Origin: Deltaproteobacteria bacterium
Lineage (GTDB): Bacteria > Myxococcota_A > Polyangia > Fen-1088
Assembly: GCA_033763315.1 (NCBI GenBank)
Contig: JANRKS010000008.1
Span: forward strand, 1-64,000
Length of the DNA stretch: 64,000 nucleotides
Direction: 5' to 3'
The notes below the pieces were generated by a model, which saw only the letters and a program-made list of their open reading frames with translations, had not been told where the DNA came from and did not search any database. Positions 7,183-24,126 of the stretch are shown here, one piece after another. The position numbers and the translations under genes are program-made. The stretch's first letter is position 1. Each line of letters opens with the position of its first letter.

Positions 7183-8430
7183 ATGCCAGCTGTTTCATTG
7201 CCACAGCCCCAGGATCGCCTCGGCCAGTATCGGCTCCTGTACCCGTTGGGACAGGGCGGTATGGCGTCCGTGTTCGTGGCCGAAGGGGAGGCAGGCCCGC
7301 ACAAGGGAGAGCGAGTGGCGTGCAAGATCTTGTTGCCCCATTTGCACAGCGACGAACGTTGGCGCGCGCAATTGTTTGCGGAAGCCCACACAACAGCGGC
7401 CGTGCAACACGACAATGTGATTCGCGTGCTCGATATCCCCGAAGATCGCAACGCTGGATTCTTTGTGATGCAATGGCGGGACGGCTTGCCCCTTGATCGG
7501 CTGTTGGCCTTGGCGGGGAAGTTGGAGGTGCCTGTGGCCTGCACCGTGTTGGCACAAGCGGCGCGTGGGCTTGCCGCCGCGCACGCCGCCAAGGACGCGC
7601 AAGGGCAGCCTCTGCACATCGTTCACCGCGACGTGAGCCCGCATAACCTTCACGTGGGCAGCGATGGCATCGTCAAGCTGCTGGACTTTGGTATCGCCGC
7701 GGCCCAAGGCCACGCCCGCCTCACACGCACGGGTGAGTTCAAAGGCAAATTGGCTTACGTGGCGCCGGAGCAGATCACGCGCAGCCACCCGATAGACTTT
7801 CGCTGCGATCTGTGGGCGTTGGGATTGGTGGCCTATGAGGTCCTGACGGGTCGATGTTTGTTCGCCGCCGACGACGAAGCGACCACATTGTGGAACGTGA
7901 CCGCAGCCGAGGTGCCAACGCTCGCCGCTTTGGGATGCGCTGTGGATCCGGCGTTGGCGGCGATCATTGAGGCGTGCGTGCAGCGCGATCCGGCGCACAG
8001 ACCGGCGCGCGCGGCGGACGTCGCGCAGGCCTTCGAGGCGGTTGCGGCGGAGCCAGCCAGGCTCGCGAGATTGGTGCAACAGCATACGAGCACGGTGGCC
8101 GCGCGACCGCAGCCCAAACCTGCACGGCGCAAAGTGTGGTTTGGCGTGGCGGCCATCGCCAGCGCAGCAACGATCACGTGGCTTGCCTTGCCAGCCGCCC
8201 CCCCAAAGTCTCCACAGACCATTGAGGCACCCCGCCCGGCGGAGCCAGAGCCTCGTGCGGCGGCAGTCGCCCCATCGCCACCGGCTGCCGCCGCCACGCC
8301 ACCCAGCTTGGGCACCATGAACGCAAAACGGCGGGCGCCAGCGCGCACTGGGGCGCGGCCGCCCGCCGCAAAACCGCATCCTGATCTGGTGTCGAACCCC
8401 TACAAGGACTTGGTTGGTAACCCCTACTAA
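7183..8430 (+). CDS. Membrane Ser/Thr protein kinase with Pro-rich extracytoplasmic tail
   Basis: GQGGMA, HRDVSPHN, DFG, APE. TM VWFGVAAIASAATITWLAL; Pro/Ala linker; ends DLVSNPYKDLVGNPY. Confidence 0.92.
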   Translation: MPAVSLPQPQDRLGQYRLLYPLGQGGMASVFVAEGEAGPHKGERVACKILLPHLHSDERWRAQLFAEAHTTAAVQHDNVIRVLDIPEDRNAGFFVMQWRDGLPLDRLLALAGKLEVPVACTVLAQAARGLAAAHAAKDAQGQPLHIVHRDVSPHNLHVGSDGIVKLLDFGIAAAQGHARLTRTGEFKGKLAYVAPEQITRSHPIDFRCDLWALGLVAYEVLTGRCLFAADDEATTLWNVTAAEVPTLAALGCAVDPALAAIIEACVQRDPAHRPARAADVAQAFEAVAAEPARLARLVQQHTSTVAARPQPKPARRKVWFGVAAIASAATITWLALPAAPPKSPQTIEAPRPAEPEPRAAAVAPSPPAAAATPPSLGTMNAKRRAPARTGARPPAAKPHPDLVSNPYKDLVGNPY

Positions 8431-9338
8431 CGCCCCATATCAGCAAGGATGGCTTTGAGCCCATCCAACGAGGTCTTCACGCATTCGATGGGTGTCATGC
8501 CTTTGGGGTAATCTTCTTGCTCCACGATAAACCATTCGGTGCCACCGGCTTCGTCGCACGCTTTGATCACGCCGCGCCAATCGATCGTGTCTTGTCCGAT
8601 GAAGGGCTTCTTGTCTTTGACGCCTTCAGGGAGCTTCGCTTTAAAATGCGCAAGCTTGGTGCGGCCAGGGTAACGCTTTATCAGAACCACAGGATCGAAA
8701 CCGGCCATGGTGCTCCAGCCGATGTCGTGTTCAATCGCCACGTCTTTCTTGGTGCGCTCGATAAACAGATCCCAATATGTTTTGTCGTTGGGCTTATCGC
8801 CCACCTTCTTAAACTCTTCGGTGTGGTTGTGATGACCGCAAAACAATCCCGCGGGCTTCAACGCCTTGGCGGCATCGTTCATGACTTTGGCGTATTCCTC
8901 GCTGCCGGCTGGATCGCTGAAGCGTTTGTCGCCCGCCACGATCAAGTAGCGGCAGCCAATCGTTTTGTGAAAGTCGATCGTCTCTTGCAGCTTATCGGCG
9001 GCGAAGGCCGACGCCCCCACGTGTGAGCCTGCGGCCTTCAGTTTAAGCTCGTCCAACTTCTTGCGCAGCCCTTGGGCGTCTTTGGCGTATTTGTGAAAGC
9101 CCGCGAATTCCACGCCCTCGAAGCCGAGGTCAGCGGCCGATTTGAGGGCGGCGTCCATATCCTTCGCGGCGTCTTCTCGGATCGACCACAGTTGCAAGCC
9201 AATGCCAATCTTGCGTGGCTGCTTGCGTTTGGCGGCCAGGGCTGTGCCCGCCACCGCTAACGTCACGCCCGCGGCGCTGACGGCTAAAAAAGTGCGGCGG
9301 GTGGCCGTGATGTTTTCGTTTAAGGGACGCTGGCTCAT
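8427..9338 (-). CDS. Tat-exported sugar-phosphate isomerase/epimerase (xylose-isomerase-like TIM barrel)
   Basis: TRRTFL Tat motif; GLQLWSIR, GVEFAG, HNH, EHDIGW, HFK, VEQE. AAGGAG RBS before ATG 9338. Confidence 0.88.
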   Translation of the reverse strand: MSQRPLNENITATRRTFLAVSAAGVTLAVAGTALAAKRKQPRKIGIGLQLWSIREDAAKDMDAALKSAADLGFEGVEFAGFHKYAKDAQGLRKKLDELKLKAAGSHVGASAFAADKLQETIDFHKTIGCRYLIVAGDKRFSDPAGSEEYAKVMNDAAKALKPAGLFCGHHNHTEEFKKVGDKPNDKTYWDLFIERTKKDVAIEHDIGWSTMAGFDPVVLIKRYPGRTKLAHFKAKLPEGVKDKKPFIGQDTIDWRGVIKACDEAGGTEWFIVEQEDYPKGMTPIECVKTSLDGLKAILADMGR

Positions 9339-9470
9339 AGATTCTCCTTGGGCCTCGTTGAAAAGGACGCTTTTTCTACAGGGAAGCGGTGGCCATGGCA
9401 ATCAAACGCCGCGGCTCGCCCGGCTTTGACGTTGGCCGGGCCGTGGGTATTTGATAAAAGACGCAGTCAC

Positions 9471-10241
9471 GTGGCGAGCCCTCGACGAACGTTTTTTTTC
9501 CCCCGGTGGATTGCAAATGTTGCCCGGATCAGCATGGCGGCAATCTCCCTTGTGGTACTGACGTCACAGTATGCTCACACGGCCCCGGGGAAGGCCAACC
9601 GCGAAAAGGCCAGCGCGGTGTTCAACGAGGCCGAAGCGGCGTTCAGCGACGGGGCTTACGACCTGGCATTGAAAAAATTCGAGGCCGCTCAGGCTCTGTC
9701 GTTTAGCCCCGTCGTCGACTTCAACATTGCCGTTTGTCTTGAGCGTCTGGGACGCGCCTTGGAGGCAGCACAACAGTACCAACGGGTGGCGGACGATGTG
9801 CAAGTGCCGGCGAACGTGCGCGAGCGTGCCCGCCTTGCGTTGATGGCATTACGGCAACCGCCACCCGAGCCAAGTTCTCCGGCAAGGCCATCAACGCCCC
9901 TGCCCAAGGCGGCACCTCCGCAGGAGGAGCCCGCGCTCACGCTCGGCCCCTTGCCGCCACCAGCCACCCCGCAGCCCTGGCTGGGACCCGTAGGATGGGC
10001 GGGAGCCTCAGTGGCCGGGGCGGGCGTGGTCGCCGCAAGCCTGTTTTGGCTCCTGGGCTCCGCCGCTGTTGATGAGTACAACGATGAGGGCACGACCGAT
10101 GTTCAACGGTTAACCACGCTTGCTGACCGAGTCGAAAATTATGATCTGGCTTACAAGCTCAGCCTAGGCCTCGCCATCACAGGCGGGGCGGCCATCTTGG
10201 TGGATCGCCTTTGGCTGCATTCGCGACGTCGAGTTGACTAA
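9471..10241 (+). CDS. Exported TPR protein with C-terminal hydrophobic hairpin (PEGA-protein-like, myxobacterial)
   Basis: Signal-like N-terminus; TPR helices (FNEAEAAFSDGAYDLALKKF...FNIAVCLERLG); Pro linker; two hydrophobic C-terminal segments. Start uncertain (9471 or 9534). Confidence 0.75.
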   Translation: MASPRRTFFFPRWIANVARISMAAISLVVLTSQYAHTAPGKANREKASAVFNEAEAAFSDGAYDLALKKFEAAQALSFSPVVDFNIAVCLERLGRALEAAQQYQRVADDVQVPANVRERARLALMALRQPPPEPSSPARPSTPLPKAAPPQEEPALTLGPLPPPATPQPWLGPVGWAGASVAGAGVVAASLFWLLGSAAVDEYNDEGTTDVQRLTTLADRVENYDLAYKLSLGLAITGGAAILVDRLWLHSRRRVD

Positions 10242-11572
10242 AGCGGCTCGGTCGAAAGCCCGTGCTTCTGCAAAAGCTCGATCAAATACGAACGGTTCAT
10301 CTGCGCGCGCCGCGCGGCTTCCCGCACGTTGCCGTTCGTCAACTGCAGCAGCGTCGTAAGGTAGCGCCGCTCGAACTCGTCGACCAATTCGCGACGCGCC
10401 TCTCGATAAGGCGCGATGCCTTGTGGCGTGCGGAACTCATTGAGCAGATCACGGGCGGGCTGTTGTGGCTGGCCGTCCCCAGACACGGACACAAAATCGG
10501 GCGTTTGCCCCAACGCCAGCGTGCCCAGCACGATGTTCCGCAATTCGCGCACATTGCCAGGCCAATCATGGGTGCGCAGGCGTTCAAGAGCCTGCGGCGA
10601 GAACAATTCCGTAAATCGCGCGCCCTGCCCTTCCAGCGCTAAGAAACGTTCCACCAAGGGTGCAATGTCTTCGGGGCGCGCGCGCAAAGGTGGCACATCC
10701 AAACGCACCACCGCCAAACGATAAAACAGATCTAAGCGAAAGCGGCCTTGGTTAACTTCCTTCAACAGATCGCGCGAAGTCGCGGACAGCACGCGCACGT
10801 CGATCGGAATGTCTTTGCTGCCGCCCAAACGACGAATCGTTTTTCGTTCAAGCACGCCCAGCAGCGCCGACTGCAGTTCCGCAGACAGCTCGCCCACCTC
10901 GTCCAAGAACACCGTGCCCCCTTGCGCGCGTTCAAACGCACCCAAATGTTGGCGATGCGCGCCCGTAAATGCCCCCTTTTCGTGGCCGAACAGTTCGCTT
11001 GCAAACAGCGTGGGAGACAGCGATCCGCAATCGACTGTAACCATCGCGGCTTTCGCGCGCGCGCTGCCTTCGTGCAAGGCCTGGCCCACAAGCTCTTTGC
11101 CCGTGCCTGATTCGCCCAAGATCAAAACGGCCACATCGCTTTTCGCCGCTTGCTCCACGCGCGCCAGCAAGCGACGCATCACGGGCGCCGTGGCCATCAT
11201 GCCCCCCAACTCGCGCGGGCCGTGCTCAACCATCACCACATCGGCGTCAACCAATTGCAGCTGCACTTGGCCCAAGCTCAAGGCCGCGGGCGCTTTGACC
11301 AAAGCTTCCGTGCCCTGCAGCCGCACGGGCCCGATGTGCGTGCCGTTGGTTGAGCCAAGATCGCGAACCACAATGCGATCGCCACGCCGAGAAAGCTGCG
11401 CGTGAAAGCGCGACACCGTGGGATCGTCGATGCGCAGATCGTTGCCAAGCGCGGAGCCGATCGACATGTCGTCGCCCGAGGCCACAAAATCAATGGAGGT
11501 GTCTTGCGTGGACCGCACGCGCACGCGGCGAATGGGGAGCCCCACTTGGGCGAGCGGCTTGGTTTCGTTCAT
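10238..11572 (-). CDS. FHA-domain sigma54-dependent transcriptional activator (bEBP)
   Basis: FHA (VSRFHA...DLGSTNGT), GESGTGKE, GAFTGA, LDEVGE, WPGNVREL, Fis-type HTH. Confidence 0.95.
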   Translation of the reverse strand: MNETKPLAQVGLPIRRVRVRSTQDTSIDFVASGDDMSIGSALGNDLRIDDPTVSRFHAQLSRRGDRIVVRDLGSTNGTHIGPVRLQGTEALVKAPAALSLGQVQLQLVDADVVMVEHGPRELGGMMATAPVMRRLLARVEQAAKSDVAVLILGESGTGKELVGQALHEGSARAKAAMVTVDCGSLSPTLFASELFGHEKGAFTGAHRQHLGAFERAQGGTVFLDEVGELSAELQSALLGVLERKTIRRLGGSKDIPIDVRVLSATSRDLLKEVNQGRFRLDLFYRLAVVRLDVPPLRARPEDIAPLVERFLALEGQGARFTELFSPQALERLRTHDWPGNVRELRNIVLGTLALGQTPDFVSVSGDGQPQQPARDLLNEFRTPQGIAPYREARRELVDEFERRYLTTLLQLTNGNVREAARRAQMNRSYLIELLQKHGLSTEPL

Positions 11573-12846
11573 CGAAAATCGATCAGGTAAAGCTCAGCAA
11601 AACAGTTTGTGGCCCAATTGCTGCCGAACAACACACGTTGAGCGGTTCGATCAAGCGTGGCGTGCGGCATCACAGCGCTGGGTTCGATGGGGCAGTTTAC
11701 AACGCTTTGGCTGGTGATGGCCGCCAAAGCGCTGTTGTGGTGGGCCAACCGCCACACGGCGGGTGCGTCAACGCGGCCATTTAACGAAAACGCGGTGACT
11801 TCACCGGCAAACGGGGTCTCGGAATTTCCACCGGTGACGCCCATCACGCATGTATCCGTGCCGTGCGCCGCGCACGAGAGCTCCACAGCGTGATCGATCG
11901 CCACGCCAAGCAATGGCTCGGCAGGTGCTGGTGCCACAGAAAGGGCGTGCTTGGCAATGGTGAATGCGGGCGCCGCGTTCCCTGCCGGCTCGACGCACAC
12001 AAGCCAACTCTTCAAACGCGCGTCGAGCGCCACGTCGCACACAGGTGTTTGCGACATCAGCTGACGCACCCGTGCCCCCTGTTGATCGTAAAGTTCAATC
12101 CCGCTAAACGGCTGATCACCCGGTGCCCACGCCACCACAAGGCCTTCGCCCGATGGCACAGCCTGCATCCAACGCGGGCTGAACACGCGGCCCACCACAT
12201 CGGGAGACACCACCACAGCGGAGGTTGTGGCTTGTGTGTTCGCGTTCCACAAGAACAACTCTTTGACGGCAGGCGCTTCGTTCGTTTGTGGCAGCTCGCC
12301 GCCCAACGCCCACTGATTCTGCCGCGAAGGCAGTGACAAGCCCGATTCGCTGAGCAAGCGCTGGTAGCGCGCAAACCGCTGAACCACGGTCTGCGCTTGC
12401 GCCACGTAATCAAACGCCACCACGGCGTTGCCTAGGATGGCGTAGGCGACGTTCGCGTTTTCTGGCGACCACACCCACGCTGAATCGGCCGACGGAAATT
12501 GCCCCACCAGAACCTTATCCGACAAACGCAGCACTTGGCCGTTGCGCAGAAGAACAACCGTGCCATCGGCATTGAACGCCTGCGCACGCGCGCCGACGTG
12601 AACGGCCGTATTGTCGTGGTGGCCAATGTGATCGGAAACGCGTTCGACGCACGGACCAAACGCAGGCTCCGTTGTCGGCGCGCCTAACGGCGGGCGCTCC
12701 ATGCCCCCACCTGACACGACGGCCGTGGCGGGCACGCGCGCCACGCATTTGTCCTGCCCCGTGGGCCCGCCGCCATCACAGCCCGTGAAGAGCGCAAGCG
12801 CTCCCAACAGCGAGGCGAGGGCAACGGTGGGGCCGAAGAAGCGCAT
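11569..12846 (-). CDS. Lipoprotein of unknown function, probable beta-propeller
   Basis: Lipobox FTGC; beta-rich repeats (WVWSPEN); C-terminal RLAHH...PHATLDRTAQRVLFGSNW. Stop overlaps the bEBP start (ATGA). Confidence 0.7.
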   Translation of the reverse strand: MRFFGPTVALASLLGALALFTGCDGGGPTGQDKCVARVPATAVVSGGGMERPPLGAPTTEPAFGPCVERVSDHIGHHDNTAVHVGARAQAFNADGTVVLLRNGQVLRLSDKVLVGQFPSADSAWVWSPENANVAYAILGNAVVAFDYVAQAQTVVQRFARYQRLLSESGLSLPSRQNQWALGGELPQTNEAPAVKELFLWNANTQATTSAVVVSPDVVGRVFSPRWMQAVPSGEGLVVAWAPGDQPFSGIELYDQQGARVRQLMSQTPVCDVALDARLKSWLVCVEPAGNAAPAFTIAKHALSVAPAPAEPLLGVAIDHAVELSCAAHGTDTCVMGVTGGNSETPFAGEVTAFSLNGRVDAPAVWRLAHHNSALAAITSQSVVNCPIEPSAVMPHATLDRTAQRVLFGSNWATNCFAELYLIDFR

Positions 12847-12961
12847 GGTTGATCGTGGTCAAAGAGTAGCAATACCAAGGCCAACAAAGAACGCTCATTT
12901 TCAGCCGGTTTGCGTTGGTTTTGATCGTGGCGTGGTCTGGAAAACCAGGCCGCCTGGCTGG

Positions 12962-14302
12962 CTAGCGCAGCTCAACCAAGGTGGGCGTCGGCTCGGGATC
13001 GGCGGCGCCACCCGTTTGTTTGAGATCGCCCGCTCCCCAACACCACAGCGTGCCATCGGCGGCCACCGCGCATGTGTGCTGACCGCCCGACGTCACGTTT
13101 TGCCACGACTTCATCAGCGCCACCGGCGTGGGGGTGCTTACACCCGCAGACACCAGACCTTGCCCCAGCTGCCCTCGCGTGTTGCCGCCCCAACATAAAA
13201 GCGCGCCATCTTCGCGAAGCGCACAGGTGTGTCGGCCTCCCGCGCTCACGAGAACATAGCCCGAGCCCACCAGTTGCGGACGTGCCTGCGAAGCGAAGTT
13301 GCCCACGCCCAGCTGGCCTTCCGTGCCGCGCCCCCAGCACCACAGGCTTTTGTTTAAGCGCACGCCACACGTGTGTTCACCACCCGCTGAGATTTGCACG
13401 TAACTCGTATCCACCACACCAGGGCGCGCGCTGTTCCCACCCACCGCCACATCCGCGCGGCCCAAACGGCCGTCTACATTGCTGCCCCAGCACCACAGGG
13501 TGTTGTCCCGTTTAATTGCGCAGGCGTGGGCGAGCCCCGCCGATACGGCCGACCAATCCCGATCTGAACCAACAATGCGAGGCGCCCGCACGTCCCCCTC
13601 CACGCCCAAGCGGCCATCGTCGCCCGCGCCCCAACACCACAAGGTGCCATCGGCGCGCACCCCGCAGGTCATCAAGGCGCCAGTGGCCACTTGCGCCCAC
13701 GTGTCGTCGTTGACTTTTGACAAAGCAGCGACGGTTTGGGTCACGCCAAGTTGGCCGCGGCTGTTGTCGCCCCAACACCAAAGCGTGCCGCGAAAGTGAA
13801 TGGCGCAAGAGTGCGCTTGGTCGCCGCCACTGGCTGCCACGTTGATCCATCCACCGGTGGTTACTGGTGCCGGCCGCGCGACCAACGGCGGATCAGCAGC
13901 CGCCTGGCCAAACTTGTTATCACCCCAACACCAAAGCGTTTGTCGATCGTCCGCCACGCACGTGTGGCTGCTTCCAGCCGACAGAGACAGCAAACTGGTG
14001 GAAGCCACACACTGGCCTTGCTTGCAAACATCGGTGGGCGATGCACAAACGCTGCACATCACCCCGCCCCGACCGCACGAGCTTTGTTGGGTCCCAGGCA
14101 AGCAGCGAATGCCATCCCAACAGCCATCAAGGCAACACGCGGCGTCGGTGCAAACCGCAGCGTCACCACACGCGCCGCCATCACAAGTGCCACCGTTGGT
14201 CAGGCGATCAAGCTTGGCTCGGTCGACTTTGAGCGAACATCCCACCAGCGCCGCCCACAGTGCAACGCCAAGCCACAACAAACTGCTAAATCTGCCAAAC
14301 AC
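12962..14302 (-). CDS. RCC1/BLIP-II repeat lipoprotein
   Basis: Lipobox LVGC; Cys-rich linker; about 7 repeats of SAGxxHTC...GTLWCWGxNxxGQLG. Confidence 0.9.
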   Translation of the reverse strand: MFGRFSSLLWLGVALWAALVGCSLKVDRAKLDRLTNGGTCDGGACGDAAVCTDAACCLDGCWDGIRCLPGTQQSSCGRGGVMCSVCASPTDVCKQGQCVASTSLLSLSAGSSHTCVADDRQTLWCWGDNKFGQAAADPPLVARPAPVTTGGWINVAASGGDQAHSCAIHFRGTLWCWGDNSRGQLGVTQTVAALSKVNDDTWAQVATGALMTCGVRADGTLWCWGAGDDGRLGVEGDVRAPRIVGSDRDWSAVSAGLAHACAIKRDNTLWCWGSNVDGRLGRADVAVGGNSARPGVVDTSYVQISAGGEHTCGVRLNKSLWCWGRGTEGQLGVGNFASQARPQLVGSGYVLVSAGGRHTCALREDGALLCWGGNTRGQLGQGLVSAGVSTPTPVALMKSWQNVTSGGQHTCAVAADGTLWCWGAGDLKQTGGAADPEPTPTLVELR

Positions 14303-14409
14303 GCGTCACGCAATCTACTATCCGGCAGCGCCGAGGGCCACTGCACAAAGGCGAACCGCCAGAGCGGCTGGGGCCGTCTGGCGGTTCTGGTGACTTTTCC
14401 GGACTTAAG

Positions 14410-15444: not shown

Positions 15445-15489
15445 GTGATTTCCTTTCAAGCCAAAAGCCAAAGCCATGGCCCTGCCTTC

Positions 15490-15506
15490 TTCACATGTCG
15501 TGCCAA
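15490..15506 (-). promoter_or_regulatory. Putative sigma54 promoter of the fasciclin gene
   Basis: Minus strand TTGGCACG-ACAT-GTGAA: perfect -24 box, GG-N10-GA (degenerate -12). Confidence 0.6.
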
Positions 15507-15737: not shown

Positions 15738-16373
15738 ATGGCGATTCGACTTGGAGACACAGCACCTGACTTTACAGCCGAGAGCACGATGGGAACCATC
15801 AAGTTCCACGAGTATCTGGGCAACAGCTGGGGCGTGCTGTTTTCGCACCCGAAGGATTTCACTCCCGTTTGCACAACGGAGTTGGGCCGCGTGGCCGCGC
15901 TCAAGCCGCAATTCGACAAGCGCAACGTGAAGGTGGTGGGCCTCAGCGTGGATCCCCTGAGCGATCACACACGCTGGGCGGGCGACATCGAAGAGACGCA
16001 GGGCACGGCGCTGAACTTTCCGTTGCTGGCCGATCCCGATCGCAAAGTGTCTGAGCTTTACGACATGATCCACCCCAACGCGAACGCCACGTTGACTGTG
16101 CGCTCTGTGTTTGTGATCGGCCCCGACAAGAAGGTGAAGCTGAGCATCACCTACCCAGCCAGCACGGGACGCAACTTCGATGAGATCTTGCGTGTGATCG
16201 ACTCTTTGCAACTGACCGCGAACCACAGCGTGGCCACACCTGCGGATTGGAAAGACGGGCAAGACGTGATCATTGTTCCCGCGCTCAGCGACGCTGACGC
16301 GAAGGAAAAGTTCCCGAAGGGTTGGAAGGCCGTTAAGCCTTACCTGCGCATCACGCCGCAGCCAAACAAGTAA
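15738..16373 (+). CDS. 1-Cys peroxiredoxin (Prx6 family)
   Basis: FSHPKDFTPVCTTELG, YPASTGRNFDEILR; TAAGGAG RBS. Confidence 0.96.
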   Translation: MAIRLGDTAPDFTAESTMGTIKFHEYLGNSWGVLFSHPKDFTPVCTTELGRVAALKPQFDKRNVKVVGLSVDPLSDHTRWAGDIEETQGTALNFPLLADPDRKVSELYDMIHPNANATLTVRSVFVIGPDKKVKLSITYPASTGRNFDEILRVIDSLQLTANHSVATPADWKDGQDVIIVPALSDADAKEKFPKGWKAVKPYLRITPQPNK

Positions 16374-16454
16374 CCGCGAGCGACGCCATCGAGCGGGCGA
16401 GGCCTTGGGTGGCGTTGCCCGCTTTCATGCCTCCGCGCATGGTATGTTGTGCCA

Positions 16455-17828
16455 TTGACCGCCATGGACGCCCCACGACGGCTCGGTCGCTACGAGTTGC
16501 TACACCCCATTGCCGCCGGTGGTATGGCCACGGTGTTTCTTGGCCGGGCTGCGGGGATCGGCGGCTTTGAACGTTTGGTGGCGGTGAAGGTTTGTCATCC
16601 CCATTTGCGAGGGGATCCCGAGTTCGCTGCGATGTTCTTGGACGAAGCGCGCTTGGCGGCGCGCATCCATCATCCGAATGTGGTGCCCGTGCTGGATGTG
16701 GGGGATGACGGCGCGCTCTTCTTCGTGATGGAATACGTCCAAGGCGTTGCGCTTTCGGAGTTGATTCGGGAGGCGCACGCCGTGCCTCTGCCGATCGTGA
16801 TGCGGATTGCGCGTGACTTGTTGGCGGGCTTGCATGCGGCACACGAGCTTCGCGATGGCGAAGGCCAACCACTGAACGTGGTTCATAGAGATGTATCACC
16901 CCAGAACGTTCTGGTGGGCTGCGACGGTGTGTCTCGCGTGGTTGATTTCGGCGTGGCCAAAGCAGAGGCACGCGCCACGGTCACCAAGGGGGGCGCTGTG
17001 AAGGGCAAAATTGGCTACATGCCCCCCGAACAGTTTCTCGGCAAGCCGGTGGGCCGGCGTGCGGATATCTACGCCACCGCGGTGGTGATCTGGGAATCAT
17101 TGGCCGGCGTTCGCTTGTTCGATGCCGACTCCGACGCAGGAGTGATGAACCTGGTTCTGCGCGGGCAAATGAGGCCTTGGCCAACGAATGTACCCGCGCT
17201 GCCGGAGTCATTGCAAGGCATCCTGTCGCGCGCGCTCAGCGTTGATCCGCAGTCGCGGTTTCACACGGCGAACGAAATGTTGGCCGCCCTTGAAGACGCG
17301 ACCATCGGCGTCGCAACAGCAAACGAGGTGGGGGCATGGGTGCAAAGCGCAGGCCCCGCATCTTTGCGCGAACGGCGGCGTCTGGTGATGACGGTCAGCA
17401 CGCAACGGGAGACGACCCATGGCGCTGGCAAAGCTGGGTCCACAACTTTGTTTGCGCGTTGGCGCGCCGGTCACTTGATCGTTGTGCCGCGGCGTTGGAT
17501 CGTCAGCGCGGGTGTTTTGACATCGGCGTTGGTGGCCGCGGTGCTGTGGGCCTTGATCGCACGCGGGCCCACACCCGTGGCCACAAAGCCTGCCAACCCG
17601 CCCCCTCCACCTGTGCAGGCACAAGCGTCGCAGGCAACCGACGCGCCCGCCTCCGCCCTAATGCAAACCCCGCCGGTGCTTGGGGCAACGGCGCCAAAAG
17701 CGGGTGTACCAAGCCAGCCACCGGCGCCCAAGACGTCCGAGAAGCCAAGGGTTAAGCGCAAAAGCGCCGGGAGAGCTGGTAACAAGGTGGCTAAGACGCC
17801 TCAGGAATTTCGGCCCACTGAGTTGTAA
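16455..17828 (+). CDS. Membrane Ser/Thr protein kinase with Pro/Lys-rich extracytoplasmic tail
   Basis: AAGGMA, VAVK, HRDVSPQN, DFG, YMPPE. TM WIVSAGVLTSALVAAVLWALIA; ends EFRPTEL. Start 16449, 16455 or 16464. Confidence 0.93.
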   Translation: MTAMDAPRRLGRYELLHPIAAGGMATVFLGRAAGIGGFERLVAVKVCHPHLRGDPEFAAMFLDEARLAARIHHPNVVPVLDVGDDGALFFVMEYVQGVALSELIREAHAVPLPIVMRIARDLLAGLHAAHELRDGEGQPLNVVHRDVSPQNVLVGCDGVSRVVDFGVAKAEARATVTKGGAVKGKIGYMPPEQFLGKPVGRRADIYATAVVIWESLAGVRLFDADSDAGVMNLVLRGQMRPWPTNVPALPESLQGILSRALSVDPQSRFHTANEMLAALEDATIGVATANEVGAWVQSAGPASLRERRRLVMTVSTQRETTHGAGKAGSTTLFARWRAGHLIVVPRRWIVSAGVLTSALVAAVLWALIARGPTPVATKPANPPPPPVQAQASQATDAPASALMQTPPVLGATAPKAGVPSQPPAPKTSEKPRVKRKSAGRAGNKVAKTPQEFRPTEL

Positions 17829-17837
17829 GATGATCGC

Positions 17838-18788
17838 GTGATCCCCGTGGCTCTCGCTCGGTTTGTGTTTTTCGGATGCGTCTGCGCGGCTTTGACATTG
17901 GGTCACTCGCAGCCGAGCCATGCCGACGCGTCCATCGAGGCCACGGCGCTTGCGAAGGAACGCTTTGCGCGCGGGCTCACGCTTTACGATCAAGGTGATT
18001 TCCGCGGCGCGCTTGGCGCGTTTGAAAGCTCGGTTGATGTCTACGCGTCACCTAACTCCATCCTTTACATCGCTCGTTGCCTCCGCGCCCTGTCCCGCTT
18101 TGCCGAAGCGGTCGCCCGTTACGAACGCACGGTGCAGATGGCCAATAATTTTGCCGTCACTGAACCGCGTTACCGAGACACGGCAGCGGCGGCCGCAGCC
18201 GAGCTTGCACAAACCAAACTTCGTGTCGGTCGCATCGCGGTCACGGTTTTGCAGCCTCAACCATCAACGTGCGTTTTTGTGGGTGACAAACAACTTGCGC
18301 CGTCGGACTGGGGCGCATGGATCGCGGTGGATCCAGGCGAGGTGAAGATCACAGCCAAGAATGAAGACAAACTGGTGACGTCATCAACCATCTGGGTGCA
18401 AGCGGGCGCCGACGCGAAGGTGGAATTGTCCATTCCCACGCCCGTTGGCACCATCCCCTCCGCGCCGCGTGAGCGCAGCCAGCGCTCGCCCTGGGTTTAT
18501 CCGAGCGTTGCCGTCGCAACGTTGGGCGTCGGCGCGTTCGCTGCATTTGCGATCTTGGCGAAACGGACGCACGCCACGCTTGAAAGCCGCTGCCCGGAAG
18601 GGTTTTGCCGCACGTCGCAAGACGACCTTATCGACCGCGGGCAGACGTATCAAACGCTCGCCAACGTCGGTCTCGCGGTGGGAGCGCTTGGTTTGGGTGC
18701 CAGCGCATGGTTTTGGTGGAAAGGCCATCAGGTGAGCGCCGAACCTCGCAGCGACGGTGCCTTCTTGCAGATCGCCGGGCCCTTTTAG
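17838..18788 (+). CDS. Exported TPR/PEGA-like protein
   Basis: Signal peptide (…SHA); TPR (AKERFARGLTLYDQGDF...SPNSILYIARCL); PEGA-like beta domain (VDPGEVKITA); C-terminal hydrophobic hairpin with C-x4-C; terminal Phe. Confidence 0.8.
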   Translation: MIPVALARFVFFGCVCAALTLGHSQPSHADASIEATALAKERFARGLTLYDQGDFRGALGAFESSVDVYASPNSILYIARCLRALSRFAEAVARYERTVQMANNFAVTEPRYRDTAAAAAAELAQTKLRVGRIAVTVLQPQPSTCVFVGDKQLAPSDWGAWIAVDPGEVKITAKNEDKLVTSSTIWVQAGADAKVELSIPTPVGTIPSAPRERSQRSPWVYPSVAVATLGVGAFAAFAILAKRTHATLESRCPEGFCRTSQDDLIDRGQTYQTLANVGLAVGALGLGASAWFWWKGHQVSAEPRSDGAFLQIAGPF

Positions 18789-18822
18789 CCGTACGCTGCG
18801 GCTGTTGATACTATGCTGGCGC

Positions 18823-20121
18823 TTGGTGGCCACGCATAACGAGACCCAGATTGTTCAGGAACAAGGCTCCGGCGGCCGTGTCGCGGTCCGGCAAAGGCCT
18901 CGCATTTCATGGTCTGACGAGGCTGGCGCCCACACAGTGATCGTCGAAGATCGCATGGTCATAGGCTCGGCCCCGGGGGTCGATTTGCAAATTGCATTGC
19001 CCACCGTCTCGCGGTTGCACGCCGAGTTTGAGCCGCGCGAGGACGGCCTGTGGGTGCGCGACCTGGGCAGCCGCAACGGCACGTTCATCGACGGCATTCG
19101 CATCGAGTGCGCCCGCTTGATGGAAGGTTCCACATTGGCGATGGGCACAGCACGGCTCGTCGTGGCGGAAGCCGCGTTGCCCGTGGCCGTTGATTTGTGG
19201 CCAACCTCGCCGTTTCACGACCTCGTCGGCGCGAGCACGGCCATGCGTGCGTTGTTTGCGCGGCTCGCGAAGGTGGCCAAAAGTGACGTCACCACACTGA
19301 TCCTGGGCGAGACCGGCACCGGCAAGGAATTGGTCGCCAAAGCCATTCATGAGCATTCAGCGCGCGCCGACGGCGCGTTCCAAGTGGTGGACTGCGGGGC
19401 GTTGCCCGAAAACCTTTTGGAAGCTGAACTGTTCGGGCACGTCAAAGGCGCCTTTACCGGCGCTTCAAGCTCACGTGCAGGAGCGTTTGAAGTGGCCGCC
19501 GGAGGCACGGTGTTTCTCGACGAGATCGGCGAGATGCCCCTGACGATGCAGCCCAAACTTTTGCGCGTGCTCGAATCACAAACCGTAAAACGTTTGGGCG
19601 AAACGCAGCATCGCAAAGTGGACTGCAGAATCGTATCGGCCACCAACCGTGATCTGCGCGCTTTGGTTAACGCCGGCGCCTTTCGAGAGGATCTCTATTT
19701 TCGGTTGGCCGTGGTGCCGGTTGTGGTCCCCCCTTTGCGCGAGAGGCGCGACGACATTCCGCTGCTGTTGGAGCACTTCATTCGAGGCCGCGACTGTGGA
19801 TTCGATGCCGCTTTCAAACAAGATCTCATGCAGCGTCCGTGGATGGGAAACGTGCGCGAGCTGCGGAATTTCGTGGAGCAAGCGCTTGTTCTCGGCACAC
19901 GCGAGGCACTGAGGTCCATGCCAACCGCGGCGGAGAAACTCCCCGAGGTGCCGGCAGATAAGCCGTTTAAGGACATCCGCGACGAATGGATGAATCACAT
20001 CGAGCGCCAGTACATCGCGCGCTTACTTGAGCGGTTGAGTGGCAATGTGACCGCCGTTGCGGAAGCCGCAGGGCTCGACCGCTCTTACGTTCACAGGCTG
20101 ATAAAGAAACACGATCTATAA
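18823..20121 (+). CDS. FHA-domain sigma54-dependent transcriptional activator (bEBP)
   Basis: FHA (VSRLHA...DLGSRNGT), [31 protein letters not shown]. Start 18823 or 18826. Confidence 0.95.
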
Positions 20122-20965
20122 GCCGCGATGTTGGTAAACGCGGATCCAGTCAATTTGCAAGACCGCGGGAAACACGGTTGTGTCGTCAGGCTGTTCCCCC
20201 GACGCGATGGCAGCGTGCGGCGTGATCTGCAAACGCATCGGCATGGTGAGGGCTGACGCCAGTTGCGGCACCGCCCCTTTCGCGGCCCCATCCAAATAGA
20301 ACACCACGTTCGTGGGGGTCCAATCAATCCCGAAGGTGTGAAAGTCAGCCGCCAGATCGACTGTGCTGACCGAATTGCCCGCATACGTGGTGTCGTTGGC
20401 GCCTGCCGGTACAAACCAGCCACCGAACTTGTTCGTCTTGGGATCGCCGCCAACGACGTCCACGAAGTTGACTTGGGGCGGCCACCGCGTTGCATCTGCC
20501 AACGACACAGTCGTCGCCAAACCCTTACCCCTCACGACTTTGGCCCGCACCTCGAAGTATCCGTACTTCTGTTCAAACTTATTGGTTGAATCCAACGTGG
20601 CTGAACCGAACTTTGCGCCGTCAGTGGGTTCATTGGCTATTCTGAGCGAGCAGACTCCACCTTGAAAACTCACGTTGCGATCGGCCACGGCTGAGCCGCT
20701 CCAATCGTAGCGGCGAAAAGCGGTGGTCCGATCGGGCGCGATGAAGCTGGTGTTCCACCACCTGGGGTCGGGTGCATTGCCCTCACACTCTTCACGAAAG
20801 GTTAGGGTCAAATCGCTGTTCTGAGGCCCCTGTGGCGCTGGGCTCTCATAGCTTTCCCAATCCCATTGACAGGTGGAGGAGGCCAGCCACGGCAACATGA
20901 CACACAGCTGCCAGAGGCGGCTTGGCTGCTTCTGGGGCGGCGGTGACGGACGGACCGGGACCATT
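20116..20965 (-). CDS. GH16-fold protein with degenerate catalytic motif, probably exported/lipoprotein
   Basis: FEQKYGYFEVRAK, ADFHTFGIDWTP, FYLDG, QIDWIRVYQ. WPPQVNFVD replaces WPPEIDxxE. Confidence 0.85.
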
Positions 20966-21024
20966 TGCAATTTATGTTATCAGCAACGCTATGAACACGT
21001 GAAGGTTCCTTCATGCCGCGCGCG

Positions 21025-21065
21025 GTGTGGAGTGTCGTCCGCGGTGTGTGGACAATCGTCCTCAC
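21025..21065. promoter_or_regulatory. Tandem palindromic activator site (UAS candidate)
   Basis: GTGTGGAG-N4-GTCCGCGG (21025-21044) and GTGTGGAC-N4-GTCCTCAC (21046-21065), 21-bp period; 13 of the first 16 nt are identical. Confidence 0.62.
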
Positions 21066-21115
21066 TTAAGCGCACGTGCGCCCGCTGATGTTGGCTGGAT
21101 TAAGGCCTCTGACGG

Positions 21116-21133
21116 TTGGCCGTGGCCTTGCAA
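21116..21133 (+). promoter_or_regulatory. Putative sigma54 promoter of the DUF1592-DUF1552 operon
   Basis: TTGGCCGTGGCCTTGCAA = GG-N10-GC with TTGG and TTGCA flanks. Confidence 0.75.
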
Positions 21134-21166
21134 TACCCCAGCGCGCATCGCTGAAAGGAAATGCCC

Positions 21167-22834
21167 GTGAAGTTCAAGGCGTGGTCCATGGTGTTGCTGC
21201 CGCTCGCAGCTTCGTGCACAGGAAGTGTGTCTCCGACAGATGGGACATTTTCCACGGATGAAACAGGAATGCCTGCGCAGGGCGGTCGTACGACCGTGCC
21301 AGACAACGGCCCCGGATCCGCCCTTGATTGCGCGGCCGACGCCATCCCTCGGGCGCGGCTATGGAGGCTCTCGAAACTTCAGTATGCAAACACTGTTAGC
21401 CAGGTGTTTGGCGTCACCCCGGATGTGTCGGAGTTTCCGCTCGATGGTGTTTCCGACGACAGCTTCACGTCATTCGACACCAACGCAGACAAGAACTTGG
21501 TTTCGGATCAGCTTGCGACGCTTTACGAAGCGCAAGCTGCACAGGTGGCCTCTGCCTACGTCACGCGCCTCGCAACGCAAAAGCCGTGCGTGTTGTCCGC
21601 CGCGCCGGTTGCGGGATGTGCGTCCTCATTCTTTCGCACGCTCGCGGGCGCAGCGTTTCGACGCCCTGTAAGCGCCGCCGAGGCAGAACGCCTGGCCAGC
21701 TTCTACGACAAAGCGCGCCTGGCCAACGACGCCACGACCGCCACGCGAATGGCCGCCGAAGCCATCTTGCAGTCGCCTCACTTTCTTTACCGATTCGAAT
21801 TGGGCACGGCGGCCACAGGTGCCAAGGTGCCGCTGACGCAGCATGAGTTGGCCAGCCAGCTGTCTTACTTCATCGCTGACGCCCCGCCTGATGATGCTCT
21901 AAGAAAGGCCGCCGATGATGGTGAGCTGAAATCACCGGCGGCCTTGGCTGGTCACGTTGATCGTTTGCTGGAACGGCCTTCGGCACGTCAAAAGGTTCAG
22001 GCGTTCATGGCCTCGTTCTTGGGCGTTAAGAACCTGGCGGACGGCAAAGCCAAGGATGTTGTGAAATTCCCGATGTTCGACGCCGCGCTGCGATCAGCTG
22101 TGGTCACTGACGGCCTGGCTGTGATTGCAAAGGTGACCTTCGACGAAGCTGGTTCGTTTGATGCGCTGTTTGACCGCGAGATCTCTTTGGGGGTCTCTTT
22201 GTCAGCCGTTTACGGCGCAAGCAAACGCCCCGCGGTGCTCGCCCACCCAGCAGTCATTGCTGCGTTGTCGAACGAAGCAACAACATCACCTGTTCACCGC
22301 GGCCTGTTCTTTCGCCGCTCCCTGCTCTGCGATGCCCTGCCACCGCCGCCCGCAAACGCCTCCAACCAGATTGCGAAGCTGTCGGATCCAAGCAACAAAG
22401 ACGGCACGCAGCGCGATCAGTGGGTCTACTTTCAAAAGTCATCGCCCTCGTGCGCCGGTTGTCACCAGCAGTTTCAGCCCTTCGGACTTGGCCTTGAAAA
22501 CTACGATCCCATTGGCAGGACCAGGGACAACGACAACGGCAAACCCATCGACCTTACCGTCGCTGCCGATGAATCCGATCCACAAATCGATGGCACCTAC
22601 AAAGATGCCGTTGCCCTTGGCAAGGCCATCGCCGCCAGCGACGAAGGACGCGCGTGCTTTGCCATGCAGTACACCACGTTTGGTTTTGGACGCGAGGTTG
22701 ATTTGGCTTCCGACGCCGAGACGTGCCGCCTGAAGCGTCTCGTGCGCCAATTTTCCGAAAAGGATCTGAATGTGAAGGAGCTGCTCAAAGCGATGGTTCT
22801 CGAAGACGGCAGTGGCTACAGGAGTTACCCATGA
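21167..22834 (+). CDS. DUF1592/DUF1588/DUF1595/DUF1587-domain lipoprotein with CxxCH motif
   Basis: Lipobox AASC; RLSKLQYANTV, AFRRP, LQSPHFLYR, ELASQLSY, TSPVHRG, CAGCH, GLENYDPIG. GTG 21167 fits the AAAGGA spacing better than ATG 21161. Confidence 0.88.
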   Translation: MKFKAWSMVLLPLAASCTGSVSPTDGTFSTDETGMPAQGGRTTVPDNGPGSALDCAADAIPRARLWRLSKLQYANTVSQVFGVTPDVSEFPLDGVSDDSFTSFDTNADKNLVSDQLATLYEAQAAQVASAYVTRLATQKPCVLSAAPVAGCASSFFRTLAGAAFRRPVSAAEAERLASFYDKARLANDATTATRMAAEAILQSPHFLYRFELGTAATGAKVPLTQHELASQLSYFIADAPPDDALRKAADDGELKSPAALAGHVDRLLERPSARQKVQAFMASFLGVKNLADGKAKDVVKFPMFDAALRSAVVTDGLAVIAKVTFDEAGSFDALFDREISLGVSLSAVYGASKRPAVLAHPAVIAALSNEATTSPVHRGLFFRRSLLCDALPPPPANASNQIAKLSDPSNKDGTQRDQWVYFQKSSPSCAGCHQQFQPFGLGLENYDPIGRTRDNDNGKPIDLTVAADESDPQIDGTYKDAVALGKAIAASDEGRACFAMQYTTFGFGREVDLASDAETCRLKRLVRQFSEKDLNVKELLKAMVLEDGSGYRSYP

Positions 22835-24126
22835 AGTCCCAGCAACGAAAGGTCGCAAGCTTTGGCCGGCGTCGGCTTTTGCAAGGCTTGGGGTCGGGCG
22901 CGATCGCGTTCGCCCCGTTTGTTCGGGGCCTCGACGCGTGGGGCGCCCCCGCAGGGAACTTCTGCGTGTTCTATACACCGAACGGGCACGTGCGAAGCGA
23001 CTTCGGCGCCACGGGCCAAGACGCCACGTTCACGCTGAAAAGTTCTCTTGCGCCACTTACGCCCATCAAAGCGAAACTATCGGTGTTGCACGATCTCGAC
23101 AACCCCGGCGCGTCGTCAAAGGCAAGCCACGAAGATTGCGTTCGCACCCTTACGTGTCTGGAGGGAGGCGACATATACACGGCACAAGGGCCATCCATCG
23201 ATTGGGTGGTGGCACAGTCGTTCGCGCAGCGACCGCTCACAACGTCATCGCTGTGGGCCGCGGCGCCCAATTGGCAATCGAAGATCAGCTGGAAAGCCAA
23301 AGGCGTTTTTGACGCTCACGTGGACAACGCCAAGACGGTGTGGACAGAACTTTTTGGCAACTTTGTGCCTCCAGGTACGCCCCCCACTGTGATGGACAAA
23401 CGGCGCGAACAAAAGGGCAGCGTGCTTGATTTCGTGATGGAGGACGTAACCATGCTCATGCCGCGGCTGGCGGCGCCGGATAGAGCCAAGCTCTCCAACC
23501 ACCTCGATTCGTTGCGTGAAGTTGAACGAAAAGTGGCGACCCCCATTCCCGCAGCAGGCGGCGGCGCGAATGCCAGCGTGTGCGATCCTGCGGCCGTTCG
23601 CTTGCGCGTGGATGCCGGCACGGGTGCGATTGTGGGCGGCGAGGAGCTCGCGCGCGCGCTTGAAATCAAAATGGATCTCATTGCCACCGGTTTCGCTTGT
23701 GGGAACCGCCGGGTGGCAACGTTATTGGCGCAAGGGGCGTCAGACGGGCGCAACCCGTTTGGCGGCGTTAACCACCACGACGTCAGCCACTATATGGGCA
23801 CAGATCCCGTTGGCACGTGGAAGAAGATCGACTCCTGGTACGCACAACGTTTTCTCTATTTCGCAAACAAGCTTTCCGCACTGGGTGTGCTCGACAACAC
23901 CGTTGTGGTTTGGGCCACCGAGATATCGGAGGAGCATTCTCAAACGGGCTTCGTCATGCCGTTGGCGGGCGGCTCGGCTTTGGGCATGCGGCTGGGAAAG
24001 GCCTTCAACGGCAAAAACACGATCTCAAATTTGTGGGTGTCCGTTCAAAAAGCGATGGGGCTCAACAGCGAAACGTTCGGTGCCAGTTCGTCTGGCGGCC
24101 TGCCGGGGCTGTACACGTCGGTGTAA
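22831..24126 (+). CDS. DUF1552 (HXXSHH) Tat-exported protein
   Basis: RRRLLQG Tat motif; FYTPNG, SIDWVVA, HLDSLREVE, NHHDVSH. ATGA overlap with the upstream gene; AGGAG RBS. Confidence 0.88.
   Translation: MKSQQRKVASFGRRRLLQGLGSGAIAFAPFVRGLDAWGAPAGNFCVFYTPNGHVRSDFGATGQDATFTLKSSLAPLTPIKAKLSVLHDLDNPGASSKASHEDCVRTLTCLEGGDIYTAQGPSIDWVVAQSFAQRPLTTSSLWAAAPNWQSKISWKAKGVFDAHVDNAKTVWTELFGNFVPPGTPPTVMDKRREQKGSVLDFVMEDVTMLMPRLAAPDRAKLSNHLDSLREVERKVATPIPAAGGGANASVCDPAAVRLRVDAGTGAIVGGEELARALEIKMDLIATGFACGNRRVATLLAQGASDGRNPFGGVNHHDVSHYMGTDPVGTWKKIDSWYAQRFLYFANKLSALGVLDNTVVVWATEISEEHSQTGFVMPLAGGSALGMRLGKAFNGKNTISNLWVSVQKAMGLNSETFGASSSGGLPGLYTSV

Follow-up and report, generated by a model that had tools for sequence, protein, structure and literature searches.

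The window analysed here is the first 64 kb (64,000 nucleotides) of contig C8 (JANRKS010000008.1) from a Deltaproteobacteria bacterium of the phylum Myxococcota_A (assembly GCA_033763315.1), whose genome comprises 7.63 Mb in 40 contigs. Positions 7180 to 24126 hold two modules, each of which encodes a membrane Hanks-type Ser/Thr kinase (K), a secreted protein with predicted tetratricopeptide repeats (TPR protein, T) and an FHA-domain sigma54 activator (E; such proteins are called FHA-activators below). The digit 1 or 2 after a letter gives the module, and U1 is a lipoprotein of module 1. The modules are two of about 21 kinase/FHA-activator clusters in this 7.6-Mb genome, and as a gene-linkage rule the cassette is well supported. 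We read them as two separate copies of a Ser/Thr-kinase cassette that has been greatly expanded in this Myxococcota class, and consider this reading, including the whole of the pathway proposed below, fairly probable. The core genes are as follows.

7180-8430, + strand: K1, membrane Hanks-type Ser/Thr kinase (Pkinase, E = 1.8e-34)
ORF (open reading frame) 9348-10241, likely start about 9534, + strand: T1, secreted TPR protein of the short type (T-family profile, E = 4.6e-28)
10238-11572, - strand: E1, FHA - AAA+ (GAFTGA) - putative HTH sigma54 activator (FHA, E = 3.1e-13; Sigma54_activat, E = 1.7e-62)
16449-17828, + strand: K2, membrane Hanks-type Ser/Thr kinase with one transmembrane segment (Pkinase, E = 1.6e-30)
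17838-18788, + strand: T2, secreted partner protein of the long type (signal peptide, weak Pfam TPR matches, AlphaFold model)
18757-20121, + strand: E2, FHA - AAA+ (GAFTGA) - putative HTH sigma54 activator (FHA, E = 1.4e-14; Sigma54_activat, E = 3.3e-69)

The catalytic motifs of both kinases were readable in the translations (Gly-rich loop, VACK/VAVK, HRDVSPxN, DFG and APE/PPE). In K1, the kinase domain is followed by a Thr-rich juxtamembrane stretch, a single transmembrane segment and, outside the cytoplasm, a tail of about 75 aa that is rich in Pro and Ala and ends in a tandem DLVxNPY motif (final residues ...DLVSNPYKDLVGNPY). The Walker motifs and GAFTGA were likewise readable in E1 and E2. 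HTH_8 of E1 scored 20.6 bits against a cut-off of 22 bits and E2 gave no HTH_8 match in Pfam; a C-terminal GNV..AAR.LG..R pattern is kept across an alignment of FHA-activators (A1). No curated NCBIfam family scored above cut-off for any of 14 proteins. The core genes are arranged differently in the two modules. K2, T2 and E2 form a colinear operon, with a 10-nt gap between K2 and T2 followed by an overlap of T2 and E2. Module 1 is made of two convergent units, K1..T1 on the + strand and RCC1-U1-E1 on the - strand, so that colinearity is found in module 2 only.

Pfam matches in this genome numbered about 120 for Pkinase, 51 for FHA and about 51 (true matches) for Sigma54_activat. Pairing of FHA with Sigma54_activat matches defined 22 FHA-activators, and the other sigma54 activators numbered 30. 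A kinase gene was present within 5 kb of 21 of the 22 FHA-activators, compared with 5 of the 30 non-FHA activators and 15% of random 1.35-kb segments. Within 3 kb, the corresponding values were 16/22, 3/30 and 10.7%. For comparison with relatives, the single best E2-like FHA-activator was taken from each of 29 genomes of the same class (one of these loci gave no activator call), and a kinase lay within 5 kb in 19 of the 29 loci and within 3 kb in 18. A phylum-wide sample gave a kinase within 5 kb in 2 of 7 FHA-type loci and in 2 of 73 loci of non-FHA activators; the underlying scan with the activator alignment returned mostly non-FHA activators of many phyla, which served only as a control. 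The statement of an initial annotation of this DNA that kinase and FHA-activator belong together was supported, as was its expectation of co-occurrence in relatives, at least for the kinase; T-family, GH16 and DUF1592/1552 genes recurred in few or none of the 29 loci, as detailed below for each.

In a genome of 7.6 Mb that encodes some 110-120 kinases along with about 50 sigma54 activators, the genes of the two modules might also have come to lie together by chance, with no pathway in common. Kinase density is high, as the 15% of random places with a kinase inside 5 kb attests, but this value has to be set against 21/22 for FHA-activators and 5/30 for the remaining activators, and against the 19 of 29 loci in other genomes. 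Chance would also fit the finding that the block from 7000 to 24200, about 17 kb, had no DNA-level synteny in 12 relatives, where only single genes were matched (fasciclin, peroxiredoxin, E1 and AAA+ cores), and that neither E1 nor E2 has the other as its closest paralog. The gene order nevertheless persists beyond the genus: on a 3.85-kb contig (C324) of a relative from a different genus (G014), K1 (51% identity) is followed by T1 (38%), and both converge on E1 (78%), which itself follows the end of U1. The close packing of K2, T2 and E2 likewise speaks against chance, which we regard as having a very slim probability.

Recent tandem duplication was also considered as the origin of the two modules. 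K1 and K2 are 38% identical, T1 and T2 26% (over 107 aa), and E1 and E2 43%. Because these identities are low and each activator has closer paralogs elsewhere in the genome (on contigs C6 and C26 for E1, and on contig C1 for E2), this origin was rejected.

In a Pfam scan of the 20 other FHA-activator loci of this genome, the kinase and FHA-activator formed a constant core and the neighbours varied, in agreement with the swappable, modular design that had been suggested initially. Several types of locus were recognised. A small membrane kinase with a secreted TPR protein is present in L016, L018, L025 and L029; a kinase with a fused PEGA domain in L021 and L022; and a giant Pkinase-AAA_16-TPR kinase in L024, L027, L030 and L031. 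L025 has the order of module 2 (kinase, TPR, FHA-activator). L029 resembles module 1, in that kinase, TPR, RCC1 and FHA-activator genes follow one another in one direction with two TIM-barrel genes near. An apparent fusion of kinase and sigma54 activator was also seen in this genome, with Pkinase and Sigma54_activat matches in one frame of 1664 aa (contig C23, about 63000-68000, - strand).

The T proteins are of two subtypes, the short T1 type and the long T2 type with a beta-sandwich. T1 has a signal peptide, a weak TPR region, a Pro-rich linker and two C-terminal hydrophobic helices. The AlphaFold model of T2 (pLDDT 81.1) has helices at residues 31-127, strands at 131-198 and helices at 220-251 and 262-293, and its parts are a signal helix, six TPR-like helices, a PEGA-like beta-sandwich, a disordered linker, a transmembrane helical hairpin and a short C-terminal beta-hairpin. 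Pfam TPR matches of both proteins (TPR_16/TPR_2 for T1) all fell under the gathering scores. The six helices at 31-127 were modelled with a pLDDT of about 98 and matched TPR proteins in Foldseek only at E of about 1e-2. Against the PDB, Foldseek returned weak partial matches only, among them a carboxypeptidase D domain (E = 4e-3); a match to a chain of 9k1u, an RtkS-PpkA entry (E = 1.5e-3), is a lead and not a sign of homology. T2 gave no Pfam PEGA match. Its structural neighbours in the Atlas were Myxococcota clusters, in one of which PEGA occurs in 77% and TPR_2 in 64% of members, and the aligned part of one structural match was named PEGA.

As a side observation, the C-terminus of most long T proteins (alignment A2) is formed by two short strands, with an aromatic amino acid in last place (...AGPF, ...AVRY, ...EGRF, ...LRW). 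These ends recall the C-terminal signature of outer-membrane barrels but follow a helical hairpin, and T1 and its ortholog in G014 are without them.

A profile of the T family was seeded with T1, T2 and four neighbours with Pfam TPR matches, and was iterated three times. It matched 67 proteins of 180-520 aa in this genome, and a kinase was the immediate neighbour of 19 of these, compared with a background of 3.6% for all genes. In 14 cases the T gene lay directly downstream of the kinase gene on the same strand. The kinases so paired have short tails after the transmembrane segment (77-147 aa, and 243 aa in one), and in six other kinases the last transmembrane segment is followed by a TPR module that the T profile also matches, as a fusion of the kinase and T parts. 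In other genomes, a kinase was found directly upstream in 5 of 11 T2-like loci, for which flanks of only 1.5 kb were available.

Inspection of the kinase tails led us to define a motif, [DN]P[YFW] within the last 15 residues. It was present in 5 of 15 T-paired kinases, in 5 of 95 other kinases and in 32 of 5647 proteins overall. A T gene lay within 3 kb of 9 of the 10 kinases with the motif, compared with 18 of the 100 without it (Fisher p = 8e-6); five of the ten had not contributed to the definition of the motif, and four of these five have a T gene nearby. The partners of motif-bearing kinases are short T1-like proteins, and the motif-less K2 has the longer T2 with its beta-sandwich. In the K1 ortholog of G014, the C-terminal ...LVSNPYRDLVSNPY is kept and the remainder of the tail has diverged.

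Complex formation was predicted for residues 300-459 of K2 with residues 28-316 of T2. The score was 0.57, compared with 0.37 for the best of three controls, with at least 35% contact agreement between runs and a pLDDT of at least 74 for the partner. In calibration, 116 of 157 solved complexes passed the mark, as did 2 of 215 mismatched pairs; passes at or below 0.60 comprised only 18 of the 157 solved complexes together with both passing mismatches, so that a pass in this range is more often wrong unless the complex is likely beforehand. Support from this model for a K2-T2 complex is weak. It was the only pair for which the predicted association of kinase tail and TPR protein, as envisaged in the initial annotation, was assessed.

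Taken with the 14 kinase-then-T pairs, the six fusions and the motif association (9/10 versus 18/100), this weak prediction supports the TPR protein as the partner of the kinase. T may read the extracytoplasmic tail of the kinase. The relay from TPR protein to kinase tail that was originally suggested is supported as a partnership; the hand-over from a lipoprotein to the TPR protein, which formed its first step, found no support. As background, a TPR protein is reported to interact with Pkn4.

Several observations count against a constant place for T in the cassette and for the motif in its partnership. The iterated profile probably takes in some generic TPR proteins. T-family genes occur in 8 of the 22 FHA-activator loci of this genome and within 5 kb of only 4 of the 29 loci in other genomes. 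The motif is lacking at the end of K2, whose extracytoplasmic tail is Pro-rich and about 90 aa long, and at the ends of all three readable T-linked kinases of other genomes. Finally, in a relative of the same genus (G001), RCC1 (47.6% identity), a U1 homolog (38.5%) and E1 (66.6%) follow one another as in the window, and neither K1 nor T1 was found within 9.6 kb upstream or 4 kb downstream of this operon, where the contig ends.

The FHA fold is present in both E1 and E2 (PF00498, above cut-off in each). In canonical FHA domains such as those of Rad53, GarA and EmbR, the Arg of a Gly-Arg pair contacts the phosphate. E1 and E2 have Gly-Ser at this position, and 27 of 28 E2-like activators of the other genomes have Gly followed by Ser, Thr, Ala or Lys, which is at odds with a pathway that runs through an ordinary FHA pocket. 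As the canonical Arg is absent, classical reading of phosphothreonine by these two FHA domains is not to be assumed, and the initial expectation that they bind it as usual found no support. Within alignment A1, Gly-Ser is also found in L017, L018 and L044 (the E1 ortholog of G014), Gly-His in L020 and Gly-Thr in L023; apart from E1 and E2, 19 FHA-activators of this genome were aligned, and 14 of them retain Gly-Arg. The pocket residues S85, H88 and N107 (E2 numbering) are invariant in this alignment, and SRxH occurs in nearly all sequences. A kinase is still present within 5 kb of 18 of the 27 Arg-less E2-like activators, so the kinase link outlives the loss of the Arg.

Such conserved loss alongside a kept kinase would also be expected if the FHA domain were phospho-independent or oligomerising, with the kinase phosphorylating elsewhere or the activator merely controlling the kinase operon. 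Both FHA regions additionally match Yop-YscD_cpl, a phospho-independent family (E = 1.8e-12 and 1.5e-9). However, Ser-Arg-x-His and Asn-Gly are kept in the pocket, where the Arg after Ser may supply the missing charge, and the FHA-activators of this genome that keep Gly-Arg are equally kinase-linked, which argues for one shared coupling mode. We judge a link of this kind, with no phosphothreonine reading, unlikely.

The genes that surround the two cores, together with the candidate sigma54 promoters, are listed below.

11569-12846, - strand: U1, lipoprotein (lipobox LFTGC; no Pfam or NCBIfam family)
12868-12883, - strand: sigma54-type promoter candidate TGGCCTTGGTATTGCT (9 of 12 positions; 22 nt upstream of the U1 start codon)
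12962-14302, - strand: RCC1-repeat beta-propeller lipoprotein, upstream of U1 (WD40_RLD/RCC1, E = 5.9e-75; lipobox LVGC)
ORF 14410-15765, true start about 15444, - strand: lipoprotein with two FAS1 (fasciclin) domains (Fasciclin, E = 4.6e-63; lipobox LSAC)
15472-15487, - strand: weak sigma54-type promoter candidate AGGCAGGGCCATGGCT (9 of 12 positions; 28 nt upstream of the fasciclin start codon)
20116-20970, - strand: GH16-fold exported protein (Glyco_hydro_16, PF00722, E = 1.3e-15)
21117-21132, + strand: sigma54-type promoter candidate TGGCCGTGGCCTTGCA (9 of 12 positions; 29 nt upstream of the DUF1592-type gene)
21161-22834, + strand: exported DUF1587/1595/1592/1588/1585 protein (Pfam)
22723-24126, + strand: DUF1552 (HXXSHH) protein, twin-arginine signal (E = 6.8e-50); gene paired with that of the DUF1592 type

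This genome uses the sigma54 consensus. In a genome-wide scan for sites, GG and GC were required and matches were counted at 12 consensus positions (TGGCACG-N4-TTGCW). Sites with at least 11 matches cluster between -50 and +49 nt from ORF starts (30, compared with 4 in an antisense control), and at 10 matches the counts were 73 and 23. A promoter-placed site with at least 10 matches was found in 11 of 21 FHA-activator loci, compared with 26% for random genes and 14/38 for the other activators. U1 overlaps E1 by 4 bp and is the first gene of the U1-E1 operon. In G001, the intergenic region upstream of U1 carries GGGCACGCCCGTTGCT, which matches 11 of 12 positions and is placed as in the window. 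An 11/12 site at the U1 position points to E1 driving its own operon.

The promoters of the window itself are less convincing and weigh on the other side. All three match only 9 of 12 positions, with GG and GC kept and the right spacing, and the exact sequence TGGCAC-N5-TTGC has no match in the window. Genome-wide, sites with 9 matches lying 0-49 nt before ORF starts numbered 108, compared with 68 in the control, so that about one in three is expected to be real, and such a site also occurs within 6 kb in 72% of random loci. A sigma54 promoter had originally been assigned to the fasciclin gene, a possible output; the TGGCAC claimed has GTGA, not TTGC, and what can be kept is the weak candidate about 20 nt downstream. 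The promoter assigned to the DUF1592/DUF1552 pair does have a site, 29 nt upstream, at the same low level of match. Pattern scans for sigma70 promoters and terminators between 7000 and 24300 gave sites no more numerous than in shuffles.

In the divergent intergenic region between the GH16-like and DUF1592-type genes (20975-21115, + strand), a perfect palindrome of 12 nt, GCGCACGTGCGC, precedes the sigma54-like -24 element by about 40 nt, and CGGTGTG..GTCGTCC occurs in two tandem copies, each of about 20 nt. The palindrome and the tandem copies are possible activator binding sites.

Neighbour genes around the FHA-activators of this genome (RCC1, DUF1592/1552 and peroxiredoxin) were counted at 21 mapped activator genes with a radius of 6 kb. 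DUF1592-type and DUF1552 genes are greatly expanded, with 117 and 100 in the genome. They occur near 7 of the 21 FHA-activators, compared with a background of 16.5%, an enrichment of only about twofold, and, again within 6 kb, near none of the 29 FHA-activator loci of other genomes. On both counts the pair was rejected as a conserved output of the cassette. Eight DUF1592/1552 genes have a site with at least 10 matches, and three of these sit in the seven FHA-activator loci that hold such genes. The window contains a second DUF1592/DUF1552 pair at 41519-44655. It is preceded by a STAS-domain gene (40949-41344), 12 nt upstream of which lies a sigma54-like site, TGGATCGATGGTTGCA (10 of 12 positions; 40922-40937, + strand).

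U1 is predicted to fold as a seven-bladed beta-propeller. Its structure model had a pLDDT of 62, its best Foldseek match was oligogalacturonate lyase (E = 1.3e-8), and its Atlas neighbours (TM 0.79-0.80) included a cluster labelled as the YncE family. The lipoboxes of the two lipoproteins noted at the outset, U1 and RCC1, were confirmed, and both proteins are predicted beta-propellers. Among 151 sampled genomes of the class, 3 contain U1 (counting the present one), and U1 was for this reason rejected as a conserved sensor. RCC1-repeat genes, of which this genome has seven, lie near 4 of the 21 FHA-activators, compared with 1.2% of all genes. In the GH16-like protein of module 2 the fold stands, and the residues Q-V-N-F-V-D align with the catalytic E-I-D-I-M-E of the laminarinases 4dfs and 3azx. 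With the catalytic E-x-D-x-x-E missing, this protein is probably a glycan-binding protein rather than an enzyme. Genes resembling those for carbohydrate-binding proteins and glycosidases recur beside other FHA-activator/kinase pairs (L013, L014, L017, L026, L031 and L032), with the families Laminin_G_3, CBM_3, DUF5060/apiosidase-like, CBM9, GH31/GH77 and CBM_4_9.

In the initial annotation, such proteins headed a full chain of signalling. An outer lipoprotein (U1 or RCC1, or the GH16-like protein in module 2) would sense a ligand and pass the signal to the TPR protein, and from there it would run through the kinase tail and the FHA-activator to an exported gene, as a Ser/Thr analogue of Fec signalling. 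The propeller folds of U1 and RCC1, the enrichment of RCC1 near FHA-activators and the gene order of L029, which places RCC1 between TPR protein and activator, are what such a chain would lead one to expect, as are the loss of catalytic residues in the GH16-like protein and the recurrence of CBM_3, CBM9, CBM_4_9 and Laminin_G_3 at FHA-activator loci. There is also a parallel in the threonine phosphorylation pathway of type VI secretion systems (T6SS), where the kinase PpkA receives its input from lipoproteins or periplasmic proteins (TagQRST, RtkS; PMC6082577).

The position of U1 and RCC1 within the activator's operon fits products equally well, however. As both are transcribed with E1 behind a sigma54-like promoter, which reaches 11 of 12 positions in G001, they are at least as likely to be products as sensors, and the assignment of the lipoprotein as the ligand sensor was not sustained. 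Moreover, U1 is nearly an orphan, and a GH16 homolog was found in 0 of the 29 related loci. Of the parts of a Fec system, no TonB-dependent outer-membrane transducer with a signalling domain, FecR-like anti-sigma protein or extracytoplasmic function (ECF) sigma factor was detected by Pfam in 5514-29069 or the rest of the window, which leaves Fec as a loose analogy. We consider the full chain quite improbable. In the cassette as we read it, U1, RCC1 and the GH16-like protein are variable add-ons, which may be products, ligand binders or both.

Two further genes lie within or between the modules.

8427-9401, - strand: xylose-isomerase-like TIM-barrel protein with a twin-arginine signal (AP_endonuc_2, E = 3.3e-15)
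15696-16373, + strand: 1-Cys peroxiredoxin, 76 nt upstream of K2 (AhpC-TSA, E = 1.8e-33; 1-cysPrx_C)

The TIM-barrel gene is interposed between K1 and T1 in the window, and no such gene lies between their orthologs in G014; it is an intervening gene outside the cassette. The peroxiredoxin gene is possibly co-transcribed with K2. Three peroxiredoxin homologs were found in this genome, two of them within 6 kb of FHA-activators (that of the window and L023:12333-13031, - strand), and a peroxiredoxin gene is near 3 of the 21 FHA-activators, compared with 0.6% of all genes. PexR, a GAF-type sigma54 activator of ahpC in M. xanthus, was considered as an explanation for this neighbour and rejected, as it lacks an FHA domain and no kinase takes part.

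Kinase, TPR protein and FHA-activator were correctly named in both modules at the outset; these two genes and a third Hanks kinase gene had been passed over. The latter, at 4394-5506 (+ strand) and thus 1.7 kb upstream of K1, encodes a soluble kinase of 370 aa (Pkinase, E = 6.7e-43) and adjoins a histidine kinase/OmpR-type response regulator pair (2633-4282, - strand). Elsewhere in the window, an enoyl-reductase-like gene is present at 39115-40755, and two giant multidomain genes at 51132-63715 (+ strand) resemble a polyunsaturated-fatty-acid-type synthase, one with KS-AT-ACP-KR-DH and the other with KS, three FabA-like domains and an acyltransferase.

The pairing of kinase and activator is real and conserved; the inputs and outputs proposed for the cassette are a guess. 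In the pathway that we favour, the sole extracytoplasmic portion of the membrane Hanks kinase would be its short disordered tail. T would be a small TPR protein of the periplasm that is anchored to the inner membrane through its C-terminal helical hairpin, and would serve as the outer partner or co-receptor of the kinase. It would bind the kinase tail, the transmembrane region or both, the [DN]P[YFW] ending of K1-type kinases probably being read by short T1-type proteins. An envelope or extracellular cue would then alter kinase activity, and the kinase would act on the neighbouring FHA-activator, a cytoplasmic FHA-AAA+-HTH activator of sigma54 RNA polymerase, by docking to its FHA domain, by phosphorylating the activator or by both. 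This coupling is suggested by gene linkage and by the precedents of PknH-EmbR and PpkA-Fha1. The activator would in turn open nearby sigma54 promoters. Its best-supported target would be its own U1-E1 operon in module 1, in a positive feedback; as targets, the fasciclin gene and the DUF1592/DUF1552 pair have less support.

A bolder version is more doubtful. Each genome would hold at least 20 insulated three-component Ser/Thr circuits, which would do for sigma54 what two-component systems do elsewhere. The TPR co-receptor would read the [DN]P[YFW] tail, a recognition comparable to that of EEVD tails by TPR co-chaperones in eukaryotes. Coupling through the Arg-less FHA domain would be non-classical, perhaps with a role as phospho-acceptor, and the add-ons would give ligand specificity.

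To our knowledge, myxobacteria-like genomes carry at least 100 Hanks kinases and dozens of sigma54 activators, almost none of which has a known input, partner or target. The cassette offers a concrete wiring rule of kinase, secreted TPR partner and FHA-activator, along with a kinase-tail motif that is a candidate for docking and a conserved deviation of the FHA pocket from its classical form. Should this rule hold, gene position would allow kinases to be matched to activators throughout a bacterial class, and the rule would describe a transcription pathway parallel to two-component systems. Should it fail, an explanation for the strong gene linkage would still be required. A full-text literature search, which covered few subscription papers, found no description of the T partner, of the tail motif or of a demonstrated pathway from a Hanks kinase to an FHA-sigma54 activator.

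The closest worked-out analogue is the threonine phosphorylation pathway of T6SS. There, the periplasmic domain of PpkA is the target of the periplasmic protein RtkS or of TagQRST/TagR, and PpkA phosphorylates Fha (PMC6082577). As in the proposed cassette, a periplasmic accessory protein binds the outer part of a membrane Hanks kinase, which in turn signals to a cytoplasmic FHA protein encoded nearby. That pathway has a post-translational output (assembly of the secretion machine), a folded periplasmic domain in PpkA and a PP2C phosphatase, PppA. In the cassette, by contrast, the FHA protein is itself the sigma54 activator, the kinase tail is disordered and the partner is a membrane-anchored TPR protein. 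Neither a PP2C phosphatase nor any T6SS family was found by Pfam among the proteins of the window, and the likeness is only in how the cassette would work.

PknH-EmbR of M. tuberculosis, reportedly described by Molle et al. in 2003, is said to consist of a membrane Hanks kinase beside a regulator that is phosphorylated via its FHA domain. It shares with the cassette a membrane Hanks kinase gene that adjoins the gene of an FHA-domain transcription regulator. EmbR is reportedly a sigma70 regulator of the OmpR/SARP type whose FHA pocket is canonical, and neither a TPR partner nor sigma54 is said to be involved. The Fec system (FecA-FecR-FecI) is similar in general idea only, namely that an envelope cue crosses the inner membrane and neighbouring genes for exported proteins are turned on. 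The FHA-domain sigma54 enhancer-binding proteins of M. xanthus, which Jelsbak, Givskov and Kaiser reportedly described in 2005 as fed by Ser/Thr kinases and not by histidine kinases, have the FHA - AAA+ (GAFTGA) - HTH architecture that is also predicted for E1 and E2. Beyond that work as reported, the present analysis adds the genome-wide kinase link (21 of 22), a secreted TPR/PEGA-like partner together with a kinase tail motif, and a subfamily, that of E1 and E2, whose FHA domains are without the canonical Arg.

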